Origin: a virus
Taxonomy: Duplodnaviria; Heunggongvirae; Uroviricota; Caudoviricetes
IMG/VR virus record: IMGVR_UViG_2778261513_000009
Coordinates: 1-33,995 of that record
DNA length: 33,995 bases
Reading direction: 5' to 3' (one strand)
The notes under the pieces are model-generated. The model ran no database searches, was not told the DNA's origin, and saw nothing but the letters and a program-made list of their open reading frames with translations. Made by a program: the position numbers and the translations under genes. The stretch's first letter is position 1. Each line of letters begins with the position of its first letter. Positions 1,413 through 26,327 of this stretch are shown here, piece after piece.

Positions 1413-1446
1413 TACAGCTGCATTTATTAAGGTTATCATCCGTTTC

Positions 1447-1533
1447 GCTGAAAAACATAACCCATAAAATGCTAGCTGTACCAGGAACCACCTCCTTAGC
1501 CTGTGTAATCTCCCTTACGCAGGCTTATTTTTT
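1447..1533 (+). ncRNA. cyaR: CyaR (RyeE) Hfq-dependent small RNA
   Basis: Sequence gctgaaaaacataacccataaaatgctagctgtaccaggaaccacctccttagcctgtgtaatctcccttacgcaggcttatttttt matches the cyaR sequence I recall, including the terminal hairpin and U-run; sits between yegQ and ogr as expected. Confidence 0.85.
1512..1533. repeat. attL core: left copy of the 22-bp imperfect direct repeat (cccttacgcaggcttatttttt) inside the cyaR terminator
   Basis: Matches 33498-33519 (cccttacacgggcttatttttt) at 20 of 22 positions. The right copy is the reverse complement of the P2 core AAAAAATAAGCCCGTGTAAGGG as I remember it. Confidence 0.7.
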
Positions 1534-8387: not shown

Positions 8388-8966
8388 TTATGCGGGCAGT
8401 TCCGGCCATGTGATATCGGGTGCATCTTCGGGTTTGACCCTGTTGAGCATGACCCGATATTTTTTCCATTCATTAAGCGCGGTCGCTTCGTCTTCCGTTG
8501 CCATATCCAGATCAACGGCATCCTGCAGGGGGGCAATAGCCGATGTTGCAATCATCAGCAGGTTTGCTTTTTCCTGCGCCGCCAGCCCCTGACGAAATGT
8601 TTTTTCCGCTTCGGCATCGTGGATCCACTTAGCGCCATCCCATTTTACATACTCCCCGTCAGGAGCAACCGACACAACGTTATCAGGCAGAGCGCCCAGC
8701 TTTTCAATAACAACAGGCTGGCCTGTCTCGATGTCGTAGACAGTTGTCCCGCGATGGTCTTCAGTCTGCGACCACTTGCTGGCCTGTGCATCAAAAACAG
8801 CCACAAAACCCGCCGTCACTTTTGGGGGCGCAATATCGGTGCTGTATGCAGGCAGGCCTGTATTAGCCGGAATAAAGCCATCCCCTTTACCGATAAACTC
8901 ATTCGTGGCCGATGACAGGTTGTAAATCGTAATAACCCGGTTGGTGCTGGTCATTTTAAAAGCCAT
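8388..8966 (-). CDS. G: Tail fibre assembly protein G
   Basis: 192-aa ORF directly after the tail fibre gene; its ATG overlaps the H stop (TAATGG). Confidence 0.8.
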   Translation of the reverse strand: MAFKMTSTNRVITIYNLSSATNEFIGKGDGFIPANTGLPAYSTDIAPPKVTAGFVAVFDAQASKWSQTEDHRGTTVYDIETGQPVVIEKLGALPDNVVSVAPDGEYVKWDGAKWIHDAEAEKTFRQGLAAQEKANLLMIATSAIAPLQDAVDLDMATEDEATALNEWKKYRVMLNRVKPEDAPDITWPELPA

Positions 8967-10654
8967 TATGCAAGCCTCACTAAATAATTAAATGCGGTGT
9001 TTTTTACGGTGTTTTCTGCATTGCCCTCAGCATTGACCGTAATTGCGTGGTTGTGTGCGCCCAAAACAACATTATGGGTGTGAGCGCCGATGCCAACTGT
9101 ATGAGTATGAGCACCGATACCGACTGTATGGGCATGGTTGCCAGAGGTGCCTGTATTCAGGGTTCCCGTACCTGCCAATGCCTGGTTCCGGTCGCCATCT
9201 TTAACAGTCGTTGACGTTGGGGCTGTGTATGTATGAGCATGCGCCCCTGTGGTATTCGTTGTTTTTGTACCGTAGTCAAATGAACTGGTTGTTTTTGTCC
9301 CGTAATCAAATGCAGTCGCGGCCTTCGTACCGAGATCTGTATTTGCAGATGATGCTGAGTGCCCATGCGACTTAATACCATCCTGCTCCAGTGATAAAAC
9401 TGCACGACCGCTGGCTGGTTTGCCTTTGATGGTCTGACCGCGCATATCAGGAATCACCCCGGAGGGATACGCCACTGCAAGCAACGGATAGACTGATTTA
9501 TCAAAAGCCTGTCCCTGCATTAATCCATACCCTGCCGGGGGTGTATCAGACGGCCACGGAATCGGCGCCCCAACAGGAAAAGCATCATCGGGTGTCCACA
9601 TCGTCCACCGCTGCGTGGAATACTTGCTGCGTGAGTAGCTTCGTGAACTGCCATACACGCGATAAACCTGAGTCACTCCGGCACTTTTAAGTACCATCAG
9701 GGAGCCCGCTCTATTCTCCGGGTAATTCAGTGCTGCACTGGTATTCGCATTCATTGTCTGGTGATACAGACCCGGCGTCTGGTAATTATCCAGATTCTGG
9801 TCAGCACCAAGCTCGGTACACTGACCGTCAAAAATATCCTGTGAAGTGACGCTGATATCGCCCGTCAGCGGGTGTCCGTTAACGTTTCGCTCAGACGGGA
9901 CGCGACCATTCGCATTATCATTCACCGCCTTAACCGCTTTCGGCGTTGCGGCGAGCGCCTCAGACGTGCTGTCGGTGGCACTGCTGAGTTTCACCAGACC
10001 TTTCTGCGCTGTGCTCGCGTCCTGAGCCGTATATTTACCACTGGCAAGGTCATACACCGCCTTAACCGCTTTCGGCGTCGCTGCGAGACTCTCAGACGTG
10101 CTGTCGGTCGCATTGCTGAGTTGTACAAAGCCTTTTTCTTTCAGCGTGGCGTCAGGATGCCTGCGGGACTGCTCATGCTCTGCCAGTTTGTCGTCGACAT
10201 AATCCTGCGTCGCCATGACCGTTGTCGCGTCAATGGACAGCTCCACCGAGGCGATACTGCTGACAATAATCACCATGCGACAGGTCTGCGCACGCCCCGA
10301 GCCCTCCGCCAGCTCCGGCTTGTAGCTCTCCGCCATATTGGCAACGGCTATCAGCGTGCCTGCGTCATCATACAGACCCAGCTCACGCATCCAGAAGCCG
10401 CCCACCTCGGGAGGAATGACCAGCTCAGCCACGATATAGTTTTTATTTTTGTTGTCCTGGCTGATTTTATTCAGCGCATGACGCCAGACTTCATTGATGA
10501 GTTTTACCTGCCCGACGTTCGGCTCCGGCAGTGCGTCGCCGCCATCACCGACGGCCATCGCGGTAAGGTTCACTTTTTTACCACCCGGCACCGTCGCCGC
10601 CGCCAGTTTTGCAGCTCCGGCAGTGGTAATGATTGTTTTAAATTTCGTGCTCAT
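8966..10654 (-). CDS. H: Tail fibre protein H
   Basis: 562-aa ORF with a conserved N-terminus ([24 protein letters not shown]...), internal duplicated '[18 protein letters not shown]' segments and a C-terminal His-rich repeat ([30 protein letters not shown]). Confidence 0.85.
9923..9990. repeat. 68-bp imperfect direct repeat inside gene H, copy 1 (copy 2 at 10055-10122, offset 132 bp)
   Basis: caccgccttaaccgctttcggcg...cagacgtgctgtcggt...gctgagtt recurs with a few mismatches; encodes the duplicated [18 protein letters not shown] peptide. Confidence 0.7.
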
Positions 10655-12101: not shown

Positions 12102-12452
12102 TTAACTCAGTGGAATGGTGATAGAAAAAGGCTGGCCTGACGTCGACCGCGTGCCGGTGATATCGACATACATCGCGCCGTCATTCTCCCCGCGTTCAAA
12201 GGTGATGGTCGTCAGGCTGACGCGTGGCTCCCACTTCTGGATCGCGGAATAACACGCGGCCATAATCTGCAGGCGTAGCGCCGGGGTCTGCGGCTGGTCA
12301 ATAAGCGCCGACAGCAGCGAGCCGTAATCACGGCGCATGACGCGCGAGCCCACCGGCGTGACCAGAATGTCGCGCACACTCTGCCTGATATGCTCAACCT
12401 CAGAAATACTGAGTCCGGTCTGGCTGTTCATACCCAGATAGCGCGCCGTCAT
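12102..12452 (-). CDS. W: Baseplate protein W (gp25-like)
   Basis: 116-aa ORF; size and order as P2 gpW. Confidence 0.85.
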   Translation of the reverse strand: MTARYLGMNSQTGLSISEVEHIRQSVRDILVTPVGSRVMRRDYGSLLSALIDQPQTPALRLQIMAACYSAIQKWEPRVSLTTITFERGENDGAMYVDITGTRSTSGQPFSITIPLS

Positions 12453-13090
12453 TTTGTCCCCTGCGTCCAGTCATCCCCGCCTTTAACGCCGCCGTGGCCG
12501 TGGTCATCCACCTGCACGCCGTTTGATTTGAACGTACCGCCGTCATGCTCGATGTTGCCGCTCATCTTCCCGCCCTTTTGCACCTCAAGCGTGGCCGTGG
12601 TCAGTTTGTTGGTGCAGACCACCTCGGGGGTATCGAGCGTGATGCGGGTGGACGCTTTGACCAGTACCAGCGGCACCGTTGCGGTAATGGCGTCCGACGC
12701 GGTAACGTCAGCGGTTTTAATACCGCTCACCGTGAGCGCCCCGCTCTCGGGTTCGTACTCAATAACCGCCCCGTCAGGAAAGGAAACGTGAAAGGCATCA
12801 GGCGAGGTCGACGGCGCAGGATGGTCATCAGAGAAAATACCGGGCAGCACAAAGGCGGTATCGAGCTCGCCACCAATGGCAAGAATAAGCACCTGCTCGC
12901 CAACCGAGGGAGCCCACCAGACACGCGAGCGACCGGCGCGGCAGGTCAGCCAGTTTAACCAGGTGGTTTGCATCCCGCCGGTCTGGACACGACAGAGCCC
13001 CTCATCGGGATTGACTGCGGTCACAATGCCGGTGCGGATAAGGTTTCGGATCGCGCGGGCGATATCCTGAATGGAATTTAAAGTATTCAT
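12449..13090 (-). CDS. V: Baseplate spike/hub protein V
   Basis: 213-aa ORF; size and order as P2 gpV; start overlaps the W start region. Confidence 0.85.
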   Translation of the reverse strand: MNTLNSIQDIARAIRNLIRTGIVTAVNPDEGLCRVQTGGMQTTWLNWLTCRAGRSRVWWAPSVGEQVLILAIGGELDTAFVLPGIFSDDHPAPSTSPDAFHVSFPDGAVIEYEPESGALTVSGIKTADVTASDAITATVPLVLVKASTRITLDTPEVVCTNKLTTATLEVQKGGKMSGNIEHDGGTFKSNGVQVDDHGHGGVKGGDDWTQGTK

Positions 13091-13305
13091 AGATAAAGGA
13101 TGCCGAGGGGCAGAGAATCCAGCAACAAAATGGAGTTTGATGAGAGCTAAGACAACATACCCTAATACTATCTATCATTGATGAAAGCACATCAGAGCAA
13201 TGATGCTATTGTGAGCTAGCGCGAATTATCAACTTCCGCTTTTGCGGTAGGAATGCATATGTTTAAAATGTTATATTCAAGAAAAAATTGACTGAGAGAT
13301 CTTTA

Positions 13306-14502
13306 ATGTTTGATTCGATAGTATTAAAACGCTCAATAGATGGCCCAACATTGACGATTGGCGAAATTGCTGAAGCATTAATTTTCTATCAAAATGTTCA
13401 CGTTGTAATGGACACATCAACCCTCCTCGGCATCATTAGAGAAATAGGGAGCCATAATGTAATCAAGTTATTAACACTCCCTGGTATAAAAACTACTTTC
13501 ATTGAGGAGTTCGTAGGTGTGTATGGCCAAGACACGTACCATGGAAAAGAGTACGCATTAATAAGCGCTTACTTTGCCGGAAGTGAAACAGATGGGGAAT
13601 TAAAAAGCTGGAAAAAAAGATTGGCAAACATGATTTCACGCCAAGGTTATAGCAAAGTTGAATCTGACAATTTTGTCGAAAGATTCAAAAGATGCGTAAC
13701 GTTAAAGAAACTCTCCAGCGACTACTTCATTAAAGGCGGTATAATATCAGCTGCACGTAGTGATTTAAATGATAGTGATTTCGTTTCATCGGCCGCACTC
13801 ATTATCTTGGAAGATTTATTACCTAAAGAGGAAATTACGAGCGACCTCTTTTATAAAACATTCCCAACCAGAGAAACCTTCCAAATCTCGACAAATATTA
13901 ATTTTGAAAAAATAAACAACTATAATGCTAATAAATTCTCTGACATTGGTGAAACAACCCCTGCAAGCATTGCAGCGGGAATCCTTAGCGCTTCATACGG
14001 ACTTATTTTAGCTGCTCACTACGGTGGCGATTTCTATACATCAGCGACAGACTCAAAGATCATTCAGTTCAAAAATAAACAACTACTCACCAGAACTAAC
14101 GCAAACCGTAAAGAACTAGAAACCTTCAATGAGGTGATTTTGAAGGATTGCCCAAATATATCCTCAATCATAAATAAAAAAGAACGTTCCTTTGAGGAAT
14201 TTTTAGAGTTACTTTCAAAAGCTAATAAATTTAAAAACTGGCTAAAAAACAAATCCCCAGATAAAAATCTTCTATCGAACTATGTTGATGATATTTCGAA
14301 AACAGGATGGATGGGAAGTAGTTATGGGAAGGCCTTACGTTACATTGTAAGTACTGGTGCAGGAATCATTAGCCCAGCGAGCGGACTTGCCATATCCGCA
14401 CTAGATACATTTTTATTAGACAGACTTAGCGCAGGCTGGAAACCAAATCAATTCGTCACATCAAAACTAAAACCTTTTGTTGATGTTAATGATGAATTTT
14501 AA
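13306..14502 (+). CDS. Hypothetical 398-aa protein of unknown function (AT-rich cargo gene between V and S, opposite strand)
   Basis: Long uninterrupted ORF in a markedly AT-rich segment (GC-rich backbone on both sides), antisense to the late operon and followed by its own hairpin terminator. I recognise no family. The ORF track starts at TTG 13288; ATG 13306 is the likely start. Confidence 0.6.
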   Translation: MFDSIVLKRSIDGPTLTIGEIAEALIFYQNVHVVMDTSTLLGIIREIGSHNVIKLLTLPGIKTTFIEEFVGVYGQDTYHGKEYALISAYFAGSETDGELKSWKKRLANMISRQGYSKVESDNFVERFKRCVTLKKLSSDYFIKGGIISAARSDLNDSDFVSSAALIILEDLLPKEEITSDLFYKTFPTRETFQISTNINFEKINNYNANKFSDIGETTPASIAAGILSASYGLILAAHYGGDFYTSATDSKIIQFKNKQLLTRTNANRKELETFNEVILKDCPNISSIINKKERSFEEFLELLSKANKFKNWLKNKSPDKNLLSNYVDDISKTGWMGSSYGKALRYIVSTGAGIISPASGLAISALDTFLLDRLSAGWKPNQFVTSKLKPFVDVNDEF

Positions 14503-14507
14503 ATGCT

Positions 14508-14533
14508 CCTAGAGGCTCAATTGCGCCTCTAGG
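14508..14533. terminator. Hairpin (cctagagg / cctctagg) between the convergent cargo gene and S
   Basis: Perfect 8-bp inverted repeat with a 10-nt loop, 6 nt after the cargo gene stop. Confidence 0.5.
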
Positions 14534-14562
14534 TACTTCTTAACACTCACATCACTTTAAAA

Positions 14563-15009
14563 TTAGCTCAGCTGTTTTATAGCCATCTCATAAATAATAT
14601 TTTTATCCACTGGGCTTAACCCAATCAATTGCCGTTCTGCATACTGTACCTCATGTGCGTGTTGGTTTGGTCGGTCTTTAAGTCCGTACTGATGAATCCG
14701 CGCGATACGTTGCACCTTCCCGGTAAACTCCACCACAGCAGCATCATTACGGCCACTGGCTTTCATGTAGCGGCTTGTTCTCAGCTTCTGAAACATCGTC
14801 CGTTTTATTCGACCTCTTTTTGCCCTGAGCGGCTGTGGCTTTCGCGCCTGATACGGCGTGCCATCAGGCGCTTTTTGCTGTTTTATGCGTTGCTGTTGCG
14901 ATTTGCGCAGTTCCTTCGCAATCTCTGCGGCCAGCTTACGTCGCGAAGCCGGTGACAATGCCCCGATAAGTCCCGCTAGTTTGTCGTCAAAAGGTGTTAA
15001 TTCACTCAT
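14563..15009 (-). CDS. S: Tail completion protein S
   Basis: 148-aa ORF after R; size and order as P2 gpS. Confidence 0.85.
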   Translation of the reverse strand: MSELTPFDDKLAGLIGALSPASRRKLAAEIAKELRKSQQQRIKQQKAPDGTPYQARKPQPLRAKRGRIKRTMFQKLRTSRYMKASGRNDAAVVEFTGKVQRIARIHQYGLKDRPNQHAHEVQYAERQLIGLSPVDKNIIYEMAIKQLS

Positions 15010-23283: not shown

Positions 23284-24396
23284 TTAACCAACCCTTGCTT
23301 TTTTATATGGACCACAACTCCAACTAAAGAAATTCTTACCTAACTTATACCATTTATCAGAAAGCACTGGTGTTAGGTGAGGATTATATTTTTTTAAACT
23401 TCCCTTTTGTATATATTTCAATGTATTGCTGAGCAAATTCTCTCCAAAACCATCATAACTTACACAAGCAGTGTTGCAGCTACAGCGTTTTGAGTCGATA
23501 TACTCACAATCATATTTTATATCAAGCTTCTTTAATATCGGACGCCAATATGCACCATGTTTTCGATCGAGTTCAAGGGCTGTTTTAAAATCAAAACCTT
23601 TTTTATGGTCAATGTAAAATTTTACTGATTCATCTACGGAGCAAAGATGCTTAAAGAAAATGAGAGATTTTTCTTTTTGTTGAAATTGACTTTGACTTCT
23701 TAATACATCTTCAATTGTCGATAAAGGAACTAGAGATTCTATTTCATGTACATCTAAAATCTCAACGAAACCTGAGCGAGTGATTTGTGAGCCCAAAAAA
23801 TGTGAGCAAGTACCCCCGAATGGGGCTCTAGGATGTTTTTTGTCATTATCCACAATACAAAAAACTATCTCATTATTTTGAATTGCACGCTCGAATACAT
23901 CCTTAGTACTACCCCCACCGCCATTTAGAGCGATAAAACCCATTTCGCAGCGAGATAAGTTAATACCTTCGGCATAATGAGCCGCTATAACTCTAAAAAA
24001 ATCAGAATCCAAAGGATTTTCACATACTATTTTCGTTTTTTGCAATTGTGCCGAGTCATTAAAATACAATGGACCACAAACAAATTTAAAAGATTCACCG
24101 TTCTGAACCCATCTAAATGATTTATCACTAATATTAAAGTCGACAGTTACATAAAATGAGACCTGGTTCAAGATAGCATAGTACTCTGTTAGACCCGACA
24201 AAGCCTCTTGCGCGTAACTTTTTGATGAAAGGCTATAAAGCCCGCTTTGATCATTGATAATAGTTTTAAAAAAAACCCTTGTCCCTATAACCAAGTGTTT
24301 TTGTTCAGCAAATGCCCGAAGTATATTCTCAACCGCTATGGCAAATGAATTATTTAGCACCTGCTCAGGTGTCGCATTTTCGATATGAATCAACAT
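23284..24396 (-). CDS. 370-aa protein with Toprim-like E...DxD core (putative nuclease effector), partner of the upstream ATPase
   Basis: Start codon 2 nt after the ATPase stop. Motifs read by eye: KIVCENPLDSDFF (E126), Gly-rich LNGGGGS, IVFCIVDNDKK (D183/D185) about 57 residues after the Glu, and a Cys-rich C-terminus. The Toprim assignment is unverified. Confidence 0.7.
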   Translation of the reverse strand: MLIHIENATPEQVLNNSFAIAVENILRAFAEQKHLVIGTRVFFKTIINDQSGLYSLSSKSYAQEALSGLTEYYAILNQVSFYVTVDFNISDKSFRWVQNGESFKFVCGPLYFNDSAQLQKTKIVCENPLDSDFFRVIAAHYAEGINLSRCEMGFIALNGGGGSTKDVFERAIQNNEIVFCIVDNDKKHPRAPFGGTCSHFLGSQITRSGFVEILDVHEIESLVPLSTIEDVLRSQSQFQQKEKSLIFFKHLCSVDESVKFYIDHKKGFDFKTALELDRKHGAYWRPILKKLDIKYDCEYIDSKRCSCNTACVSYDGFGENLLSNTLKYIQKGSLKKYNPHLTPVLSDKWYKLGKNFFSWSCGPYKKARVG

Positions 24397-24398
24397 AA

Positions 24399-25955
24399 CT
24401 ACTTACCAGAGAAAAAGCCAACCGGCCAATTTTGTAGGAAACCATTCTCGTCAAAATAAGATTTCTTAACTATGGTCTGCTGCTTTTCATCTTTTTCAAA
24501 TACCAGTATTGAAATATCATCCTGTGAAAGATTTTCATTTTCCTCAATATATTCACCAAGTGCTTCAATCATGGTCTGGCTATGTGTCTCAAAAATTATC
24601 TTCAAATCCACATTGTTTTCTTTTGCTTTAGTTACTACTTTTGCAAAAATACTTGCTAAATTATGTTGATATGACGGATGTAAATGCAATTCTGGCTGCT
24701 CAATGATAAATGTTATAGGTTTTCTAACCGTGGTAGCACGACGTTCTGTCTCAAGCCAAATGGCTGTAACTATCGGCAAAACCTGAGAGTAACCAAACCC
24801 CATATCACTAACATTATAGTTCTCACTATTTTCACCGGTATTTATTAAAATTGCAAAGTGAGAGCCACTTTGTTCAACCTTAATAATGAAATCAAAATTT
24901 AACTTTGTCCAATCTTCAAATTTTGATTTATCAGCCGGCCTTAATGAATTCAAAAGCATTGCAAGATTGGAACCAGTATGATCTATCTCATTAACCTGTA
25001 AATCTTGAAAGCGATAAAATCTTTCTGATGTAGCACGCAGTGGAGCTATGTACTTTACATTTCTGAATGAATCTGACAAGGATGTATTTATTATATCTAT
25101 AAGATTATTAATATTCCATCCAATTATAAATGGATATAACTCATTCATTATTTCATCATGTTGAAGTTCAAAGTTTCTACTAAAAACTTTTTGTTCCTTG
25201 AATAGAAAAGCAACTAATTTACTGGCGTACGCTTTGGGTATAAAGCCAATTCTTTTGAATGCCTCTGTCACTTGATTTATATCAGATTTAGTATGGAAAT
25301 ATTTCTTTATATATTTCGCTGCTGAATCAATAAATGACAATTCTAATGCCCTGTCATGCCTAGAATGTCTCAAATAGAATGATGTGCTTGGAGGAGGACT
25401 ATCTTCCTTACCCTTCAAAATTAGATTGGGTATGAACTGCCCAAGATTTTTAGCTATTATCCCATCACGCTCTATTGTTTTATCATCTGATTCAATGAGT
25501 AACTTAACATTACTGTTCTCATCCATTGAAATAAATATTGTTAAATCAGCCAATATAAGCTTAATCGTTTTTGTTTTTGTTTTTTTATCTTTAGAGTAAA
25601 CAGTCAACTCTGCTTCAACATCTGTTGGTTGCTTTGCTAAATCAGTAAAACGATAATATGTATATCTTTGTGAAACCTCTGGCGGAATTGAGAGTGAAAA
25701 ACTGAACGTAATTTCTTTTTTTTCAGAGTTTCGGGAAAGTACATCTGTAAAATCGCCAAAATCCACATATCGCCCATACCATAGTATTGGACCAGTAGTA
25801 TTTTCTTCTACAGATTGACGAAGTAAAGGAAATGTACGCAATAGGGAACTTTTACCACTGCTGTTCTTACCAACAAATACTGTAATTGGTTTTAAATCAA
25901 TAAAAGTTTTGTTGACAAAGCTCCTGAAGTTTTGAAGACCTATACCCTTAATCAT
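24399..25955 (-). CDS. ABC-type (AAA_15/AAA_21-like, OLD/AriA-like) P-loop ATPase, 518 aa
   Basis: Walker A VFVGKNSSGKSSLL; Walker B-like FIIEQPELHLHP; H-loop-like IFETHSQ. Start taken at ATG 25955 (MIKGIGLQNFRSF), which has GGAG 8 nt upstream; the ORF track extends to 26042 across the GC/AT junction. Confidence 0.8.
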   Translation of the reverse strand: MIKGIGLQNFRSFVNKTFIDLKPITVFVGKNSSGKSSLLRTFPLLRQSVEENTTGPILWYGRYVDFGDFTDVLSRNSEKKEITFSFSLSIPPEVSQRYTYYRFTDLAKQPTDVEAELTVYSKDKKTKTKTIKLILADLTIFISMDENSNVKLLIESDDKTIERDGIIAKNLGQFIPNLILKGKEDSPPPSTSFYLRHSRHDRALELSFIDSAAKYIKKYFHTKSDINQVTEAFKRIGFIPKAYASKLVAFLFKEQKVFSRNFELQHDEIMNELYPFIIGWNINNLIDIINTSLSDSFRNVKYIAPLRATSERFYRFQDLQVNEIDHTGSNLAMLLNSLRPADKSKFEDWTKLNFDFIIKVEQSGSHFAILINTGENSENYNVSDMGFGYSQVLPIVTAIWLETERRATTVRKPITFIIEQPELHLHPSYQHNLASIFAKVVTKAKENNVDLKIIFETHSQTMIEALGEYIEENENLSQDDISILVFEKDEKQQTIVKKSYFDENGFLQNWPVGFFSGK

Positions 25956-26327
25956 TCCTAGCTCCATTAGTTCAATAAAATCAATCGATTTTGAGACAAT
26001 CTTAATATCTTTGACAGGCGCGCGCAATGCTATCCCCGCCACGCCTGCCCGCTTAACGGGTCGCTTTTAATGCAGTTGCATGACCACACAGGATCCGCGC
26101 CAGCTCTGGCGGCGCGCGGCCAGAACGGGCAACCCTGACGCATGCAAAGCAATGCACCTGTTGCATGCGCGGCTAAAAAACCGGGAAATTGTGGGAAAAT
26201 GGCATAATAAAACCGGCTTTAATCGTGCCGGTTGAGGTTGGTCTCTACGGGACAGGCTAACGCCTCGCGGGGCTCGTTGTTCAACCCCGCAGGCACTGAA
26301 AACAAGTTTCAGCACCGGCGGCGTTTG

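Follow-up and report, generated by a model that had tools for sequence, protein, structure and literature searches.

Why should a P2-like prophage carry, between its baseplate gene V and its tail gene S, an AT-rich gene that runs antisense to the late genes on either side of it, and what might its 398-aa product be for? The window in which the gene lies (the whole stretch of 33,995 nucleotides that was analysed) matches, at 100% identity, an E. coli UTAK-6 prophage sited between yegQ and yegR, where RefSeq labels the product 'hypothetical protein'. The gene and its immediate surroundings comprise the following features, given with the evidence for each.

12449-13090, minus strand: gpV baseplate spike gene, the conserved left flank of the slot (ORF list, RefSeq, Pfam)
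13091-13160, minus strand: putative PV late-promoter region of the V operon, with an Ogr-type activator-site element (alignment with P2 and four related prophages)
13161-13305, plus strand: cassette-specific upstream region of the 398-aa gene (read from the sequence)
13306-14502, plus strand: gene for the 398-aa protein (ORF list, alignment of homologues)
14508-14533, no strand assigned: G+C-rich hairpin between the convergent stops of the 398-aa gene and S (terminator-like call, folding z-scores)
14563-15009, minus strand: gpS tail-completion gene, the conserved right flank of the slot (RefSeq, Pfam)

In the program-made ORF list the frame opens at a TTG (13288), giving 404 aa. An MF(D/E) N-terminus (MF(D/E)xIVL) is common to every homologue aligned, which places the true start at the ATG (13306) and the length at 398 aa. 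All 398 codons are kept in eight close homologues and dN/dS against the Enterobacter orthologue is 0.06, which marks it as a genuine gene kept by purifying selection. Its composition sets it apart from its surroundings: GC is 0.36-0.39 over 13001-14500 compared with 0.59-0.62 in the adjoining late genes, and 0.368 for the gene itself compared with 0.522 for the remainder of the window. RefSeq names the V and S flanks in the UTAK-6 prophage 'phage baseplate assembly protein V' and 'phage virion morphogenesis protein', respectively, and at the orthologous locus in Enterobacter the flanking genes carry Pfam Phage_base_V/Phage_spike and Phage_tail_S. The first-pass annotation, which had described an AT-rich 398-aa gene lying antisense between V and S, was thus correct as to what is present here.

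It was less fortunate in viewing the gene as an insertion within a tightly packed late operon, since the V-S slot is not the interior of such an operon but an operon boundary, at which the O-operon terminator and the PV promoter adjoin. The P2 record gives the order S, 'putative rho-independent terminator for O operon', an antisense Orf30 described as 'nonessential', the pV activator site, and V. Foreign genes are described in P2-like phages at three regions (PMC6823313, PMC3091744): the 'TO region' of tin and old, the Z/fun region, and the S-V interval that holds orf30. An antisense gene at this position is therefore not anomalous, as the slot is a known moron site at an operon boundary.

Comparison with E. 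coli genomes shows that the cargo of the slot is exchanged. The 398-aa gene is present in one of 5,426 complete E. coli genomes, whereas flanks 85-95% identical to those of the window occur in 52 E. coli genomes. Homology to sister prophages with other cargo stops at 13105-13160 and restarts at 14593-14621; the differing segment (13106/13161 to 14592/14620) reaches 30-58 nt into the 3' end of S, and the last 10-19 codons of gpS fall within it. When the slot was read in a sample of the 52 genomes with matching flanks, at least four other, unrelated types of cargo were found in the sister prophages, among them these:

V-S slot of a sister prophage, plus strand: 309-aa hypothetical protein
V-S slot of sister prophages: HEPN_RiboL-PSP protein together with a GmrSD_N/DUF262 protein
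V-S slot of a sister prophage: 327-aa hypothetical protein
V-S slot of a sister prophage: 543-aa hypothetical protein

These alternative cargos have a GC of 0.31-0.35 and show no relationship to the 398-aa family. The DUF262 protein matches the PADLOC models NsnA (7e-80) and PD-T4-2_A (9e-43), and PD-T4-2 is a defence system validated by experiment (PMC9519451); the presence of this PD-T4-2/NsnA-type pair in sister prophages means that the V-S slot holds defence-type cargo. The presence/absence polymorphism of the V-S interval that had been suggested as a check is thus evident, with four other cargos in the sampled genomes that share the flanks, and this position is not invariably filled by the gene. 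In the accessible text of the hotspot papers, which analyse the Q-A and Z/fun loci, an experimental test of S-V cargo was not found.

The AT-rich region upstream, which had been credited as a whole to the 398-aa gene, falls into two parts: 13161-13305 is specific to the cassette, and for this part the claim stands, whereas 13091-13160 appears to belong to the divergent PV promoter. The P2 record annotates the equivalent stretch as 'activator binding site; activation of pV promoter'. In the window the element TGTTGTCT lies at 13150-13157 on the minus strand, 67 nt from the V ATG, the annotated activator-binding site of P2 being 68 nt from the P2 V ATG, and in P2 and four related prophages the TGTTGT core, with an AAA downstream of it, recurs unchanged at equal distance from the V start codon. 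No exact TGT-N12-ACA Ogr site occurs in the spacer between V and the ORF; alignment with P2 PV yields this related element instead. Because the PV element is kept there, 13091-13160 would be the V-operon promoter and lie outside the inserted gene, and the TGTTGTCT region probably acts as that promoter in this prophage.

Within the cassette-specific part a putative extended -10 promoter can be discerned (TG at 13269-13270, TATATT at 13272-13277), with a Shine-Dalgarno-like GAGAGA at 13294-13299, and the stretch directly 5' of the ATG is partly conserved among six cassettes. A consensus promoter scan, whose one entry was a weak 9/12 site at 13149-13178, left the extended -10 site uncalled because of its poor -35; to judge from its letters, the TG/TATATT site may have promoter activity. 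The downstream hairpin that had been noticed at first pass is confirmed by folding, in that its 9-bp stem with 6 G-C pairs gives z = -5.0 on the plus strand and -4.3 on the minus strand, values equalled by 0 of 200 shuffles. The annotated O-operon terminator of P2 occupies the equivalent place, a hairpin-like inverted repeat after the stop is also present in other cassettes, and the hairpin at 14508-14533 is a probable bidirectional terminator.

The cassette contains this single ORF. Around it only short chance repeats were found in a search for transposon-like ends, with no terminal repeats. The 398-aa gene is best described as a self-contained moron cassette of ~1.45 kb, roughly 13161-14540. 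The attributes of a moron are its location between S and V, the polymorphism of the slot, a deviant GC (0.37 vs 0.52-0.60), a hairpin of its own and a putative promoter. The proposal that it was horizontally acquired is strongly upheld by the outlying GC, the hairpin, the rarity of the gene relative to its flanks, the other cargos, and the precedent of P2 Orf30.

The protein was compared with family libraries and with solved structures. The earlier statement that it has no recognisable motif is borne out: Pfam gave no match above threshold, NCBIfam gave 0, PHROGs gave sub-threshold matches only, and PADLOC-DB v2.0.0 gave 0 families at E<=1 among 5,027 models. No transposase, integrase or nuclease signature was found in the 398-aa protein. 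A phycobilisome-linker match (PF00427, aa 235-281) reached 17.5 bits, below the Pfam gathering threshold of 28.7, and the likeness (aa 232-292) was rejected; the A1 profile matched ApcE at E = 3e-6 with repeats summed, and at 0.019 when a broader profile was used. Two AF2 models (pLDDT 79 and 82, pTM 0.76 and 0.79) both predict confident alpha/beta N-terminal and central regions and a helical C-terminal region, with low confidence at residues ~330-378. Foldseek searches against the PDB (two models) and BFVD returned no match at E<=1e-3 and none at E<0.018 with TM>0.4. The best alignments, with TM<0.4, were to Rossmann-like, TIR and PIN-like folds, and may be no more than generic alpha/beta resemblance. 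Homology to a structural or housekeeping protein, which had been named as the outcome that would speak against an accessory role, was thus found in none of Pfam, NCBIfam, PHROGs, PADLOC and Foldseek.

The hydrophobic C-terminal segment pointed out in the first-pass annotation was located at aa 351-371, between the invariant R345 and D367, where conservation across the family is strongest; it has a high content of Gly, Ala and Ser. A transmembrane anchor was rejected, as the most favourable 19-mer has an insertion free energy of +3.95 kcal/mol when the whole protein is scanned and of +5.5 within the C-terminal segment, and an energy below 0 occurs in 0 of 326 family members (computed with the scale values of Hessa et al. 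2005). The KD19 maxima, at 1.3-2.0, are borderline. No signal peptide-like or transmembrane segment was found in the 398-aa protein, and the product is a cytoplasmic protein of 44 kDa.

The gene had been called an orphan, and this description fails, since its relatives form ~2,260 clusters at 50% identity spread over many bacterial phyla. A word-indexed homology search with the window protein returned 82 clusters at 90% identity, the most distant being 25% identical, and a search of the same kind started from a 21%-identical member returned 135 further clusters; an exhaustive profile search gave 2,261 representatives at 50% identity with E<=1e-3, and 792 at E<=1e-30. Among the best 150 of the 2,261, length is roughly 240-500 aa, mostly ~400, and nearly all alignments run end to end. 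Every source that names a listed family member calls it 'hypothetical', and a precomputed Pfam domain is present in one of ~200 proteins among the matches listed. The search started from the 21%-identical member produced no usable relatives with annotated domains (one PF12959 match in 120 was disregarded). The hosts include Enterobacterales, Vibrio, Methylomonas, many Burkholderiales, Rhodobacterales, Nitrospirota, Desulfobacterota and Chloroflexota, and a few of the family-bearing bins carry an archaeal label. Megablast and tblastn found no homologue among 50,697 records of isolated phages, a literature search on the protein accession found nothing, and none of the novel P4 systems named in PMC13586616 fits the 398-aa protein by description.

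Taken over 327 members, whose median identity to the query is 28%, conservation peaks at both ends of the protein, with M1, F2, G19, A22, E23, L25, F27 and Y28 at the N-terminus, and F274, F296, F309, W312, D319, Y326, W335, K342, R345, D367, G377, W378, P380 and F383 in the C-terminal third. The stretch that AlphaFold fails to place (~330-378) is also the best conserved, which suggests that its structure may require a partner, oligomerisation or a conformational switch. What is already known about this locus is the slot itself, the moron in a P2 variable slot and the notion of a candidate defence gene; what is new is the family, with its large size, its lack of annotation and of a recognisable fold, and its unusual promiscuity among P2 slots, a P4-like satellite and a probable phage-plasmid.

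This promiscuity emerges from the genomic company of family members, which was clustered over five genes per side at 50 loci. No neighbour is conserved in these loci save P2 core genes in the P2-like ones, Pfam and PADLOC scans of 138 immediate neighbours gave no family in more than two loci, and a toxin-antitoxin test found no adjacent conserved partner gene at the 50 loci. As no partner is conserved, the gene is a single-gene unit, in agreement with what had been proposed. In 47 of 48 loci the gene has a lower GC than the DNA around it, and in 42 of the 48 the gap is 5 points or more (median difference -12.8 points). The settings in which members were found are given below, with locus numbers.

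V-S slot of six further P2-like phages, 61-81% identical (L044-L047, L049, L065)
Q-A tin/old hotspot (L048)
Directly after gpD (L057, L058)
Prophage end, beside ogr (L072)
P4-like satellite, just after the primase (L071)
IncFIB plasmid with phage-plasmid features, a probable phage-plasmid (L064)
Integrase island with an OLD-like TOPRIM/PRTase protein (L069)
Vibrio island with pyocin, HEPN and ParE genes (L073)
Pseudomonas genome, adjoining DUF4238 genes (~0.9 kb) (L076)
Within toxin-antitoxin clusters (L077, L078)
Alone among housekeeping genes, without mobile or defence neighbour (L074, L075)

The family thus uses four P2 sites (V-S, Q-A, after D, and the ogr end). Of the neighbours listed, the DUF4238 domain defends against T7 (PMC9122126). 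The gene provides a single-gene accessory function, mobile and kept by selection, which moves among the defence slots of temperate phages and satellites.

P2-like prophages and P4 satellites rank with the richest sources of E. coli immune systems, and most of the validated ones come from the A-Q and Z/fun regions. On the basis of its association with hotspots and islands that hold defence genes, the 398-aa protein is read here, with a probability of about 0.5, as a prophage-expressed single-gene exclusion or abortive-infection protein. P2 old, tin and fun are expressed from their own promoters in the lysogen. The 398-aa protein would be made in the lysogen from its own promoter as well, and would shield it, infection by unrelated phages being either excluded or aborted. 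As a guess, the variable N-terminal and central alpha/beta part would sense a phage cue and the conserved C-terminal region would be an effector or oligomerisation module, the proposed effector region comprising D319, Y326, K342, R345, the Gly/Ala/Ser-rich stretch 346-366, D367 and the GWKPNQF motif. Lysogen expression, anti-phage activity and this mode of action are all predicted from the sequence and its context. The probability reflects two figures from PMC13586616: six of eight randomly chosen P4-hotspot loci without known function protected against phages, yet only 15-32% of P2 proteins of unannotated function are predicted by machine learning to be antiviral.

Some results count against an anti-phage role, namely that the PADLOC models and the Foldseek searches gave no significant match, that no recognisable nuclease, NTPase, TIR, HEPN or pore-forming domain was found in the protein and that the scan called no classical -35/-10 promoter for the gene. 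The housekeeping-gene surroundings of some members count against it as well, as does the absence of the family from the 50,697 isolated-phage records.

The several members among housekeeping genes would fit a lysogenic-conversion or host-fitness gene outside defence (e.g. stress, metabolic or envelope), which would ride in the P2 slots as the only sites at which genomes of P2 type put up with cargo. Such a gene has a precedent in the cytolethal distending toxin genes that occur in the tin/old region (PMC6823313), and the failure to find a defence-type domain in the family libraries or in the Foldseek search of the PDB is consistent with it. However, the recurrent company of the family (toxin-antitoxin modules, HEPN, OLD-TOPRIM/PRTase, DUF4238, pyocin, satellites) is a pattern typical of conflict systems, and there is neither a signal peptide-like or transmembrane segment, nor a link to a metabolic operon, nor a pathway common to the neighbourhoods; a role of this kind is accordingly considered unlikely, although it is the best-placed of the competing explanations.

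The variable regions of phages hold counter-defence as well as defence genes, and the 398-aa protein might on that account serve the phage itself in lytic growth, as an anti-defence factor or one engaged in the conflict between P2 helper and P4 satellite. The occurrence of the family both in P2-like phages and in a P4-like satellite, and the position of the gene next to the Ogr-activated PV promoter region, are consistent with this. Its orientation is nevertheless opposite to that of the late operons and its upstream region is separate from theirs, the family is absent from isolated phage genomes (50,697 records), and many members are chromosomal, with no phage genes nearby, where anti-defence would be of no obvious use. 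These facts make a phage-serving role rather improbable. More improbable still is a selfish stabilisation gene of the addiction or toxin-like kind, or a remnant of another mobile element, kept since it is hard to lose rather than for any benefit to host or phage: an AT-rich single gene found beside toxin-antitoxin modules and transposases in some genomes might suggest as much, but it has no conserved small partner gene, no terminal repeats and no transposase, integrase or nuclease signature, and strong purifying selection over its full length, with a size that stays at ~400 aa in different phyla, speaks for a cellular function on which selection acts.

Beyond the reading of the 398-aa protein as an exclusion or abortive-infection protein stands a wider proposition, held tentatively and at somewhat less than even odds: that it is the founding member of a new anti-phage family, with a fold that has no solved relative, mobile over four P2 slots, P4-like satellites, phage-plasmids and islets of many phyla, and that S-V is the third P2 defence hotspot. 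If the anti-phage activity is real, a defence family without a recognisable domain is added, and the orf30 slot, whose cargo has gone without an assigned function ever since the sequencing of P2, becomes a defence hotspot; if it is not, the case calibrates how far residence in a hotspot alone predicts defence. The large unannotated family, the four P2 slots, the P4-like satellite and the probable phage-plasmid make the gene a well-justified candidate for cloning.

Among known systems the closest in position is P2 Orf30 (NP_046770), which likewise occupies the S-V slot in antisense orientation, with the O-operon terminator on one side and the PV activator site on the other, and is also AT-rich (GC 0.34 vs 0.37 for the 398-aa gene). 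The two proteins are nevertheless unrelated in sequence, the profile of the 398-aa family scoring -2.9 bits against Orf30, and they differ in character: Orf30 has 261 aa and several TM-like hydrophobic segments (maximum KD19 2.59), whereas the 398-aa protein has none on the membrane-insertion scale. The PD-T4-2/NsnA-type pair of DUF262 (GmrSD_N) and HEPN proteins occupies the identical V-S slot, between flanks 87% identical in the sister prophage, but consists of two genes of unrelated sequence with nuclease-type domains, co-directional with the late genes.

DUF4238 (Rousset 2022, PMC9122126) resembles the 398-aa gene in being a single gene in P2 hotspots without known mechanism. It belongs to another protein family, and a T7 defence phenotype is shown for it in that paper, whereas the role of the 398-aa protein is predicted. 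The widest likeness is with old, tin and fun(Z) and the P2/P4 hotspot genes, as these are described in Rousset 2022 (PMC9122126), Vassallo 2022 (PMC9519451) and PMC13586616. Although the PADLOC search shows the 398-aa protein to be unlike Old and every PADLOC model, it shares with them the status of AT-rich accessory cargo in swap-prone slots, and one member of its family resides in the tin/old (Q-A) slot itself (L048) and another in a P4-like satellite.

The V–S slot, the variable site between the genes for gpV and gpS that holds the 398-aa gene in the window, is a reservoir of AT-rich, uncharacterised genes. Among the other cargo genes that occupy it in the comparison loci are these four:

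L059 (phage P2), 2440-3225, P2 Orf30
L060, 1625-2554, V–S cargo gene
L062, 1721-2707, V–S cargo gene
L063, 5414-7045, V–S cargo gene

Pfam and PADLOC scans of these four genes returned no matches; strongly hydrophobic, TM-like segments are present in three of them (P2 Orf30, a 309-aa protein and a 327-aa protein). Exchange at the slot extends into the neighbouring tail-completion gene: at the 3' end of S (window 14563-14620), similarity to sister prophages with different V–S cargo restarts only 30-58 nt into S, so the final 10-19 codons of S are swapped along with the cargo.

Members of the family to which the 398-aa protein belongs were also found in two other settings:

L071, 8001-9188, 59%-identical family member in a P4-like satellite of Pantoea ananatis
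L064, 12001-13197, 65%-identical family member on the Buttiauxella IncFIB plasmid p1WJP83

The satellite encodes Psu, Delta/Ogr, AlpA, Ash and primase, and the plasmid, with its phage-plasmid-like genes (DnaE, exonuclease, cobT-like), is probably a phage-plasmid; thus one cargo family is common to helper phage, satellite and probable phage-plasmid.

The prophage backbone has a GC content of 0.55-0.62 throughout the late region of the window, higher than in E. coli, for which about 0.51 is typical, and the closest relative with the same cargo (78.6% nucleotide identity from V to S) resides in Enterobacter; together these suggest that Enterobacteriaceae of higher GC share this phage lineage. The prophage is integrated between yegQ-cyaR on one side and yegR on the other, and immediately beyond its ogr end lies:

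1445-1530 (+), CyaR/RyeE sRNA gene (Rfam RF00112, 100 bits)

The tail-fibre region (~8966-10654, -) is annotated by RefSeq in the identical UTAK-6 prophage as several partial pseudogenes, whereas ORF calling gives one 562-aa ORF covering the whole region; this discrepancy may reflect either a true rearrangement or an artefact in how a mosaic fibre gene was annotated.

A second AT-rich island is located in the P2 Q–A (tin/old) hotspot:

23284-26042 (-), AT-rich island, GC 0.32-0.36

Pfam and PADLOC scans of a 370-aa protein adjoining the island's 547-aa ATPase (AAA_15/AAA_21/DUF3696) gave no matches. Together the two genes probably make up a defence system whose type is incompletely described, the ATPase itself matching the PADLOC models NsnB (7e-55), PDC-M55A (3.5e-46) and AriA (3.6e-31).
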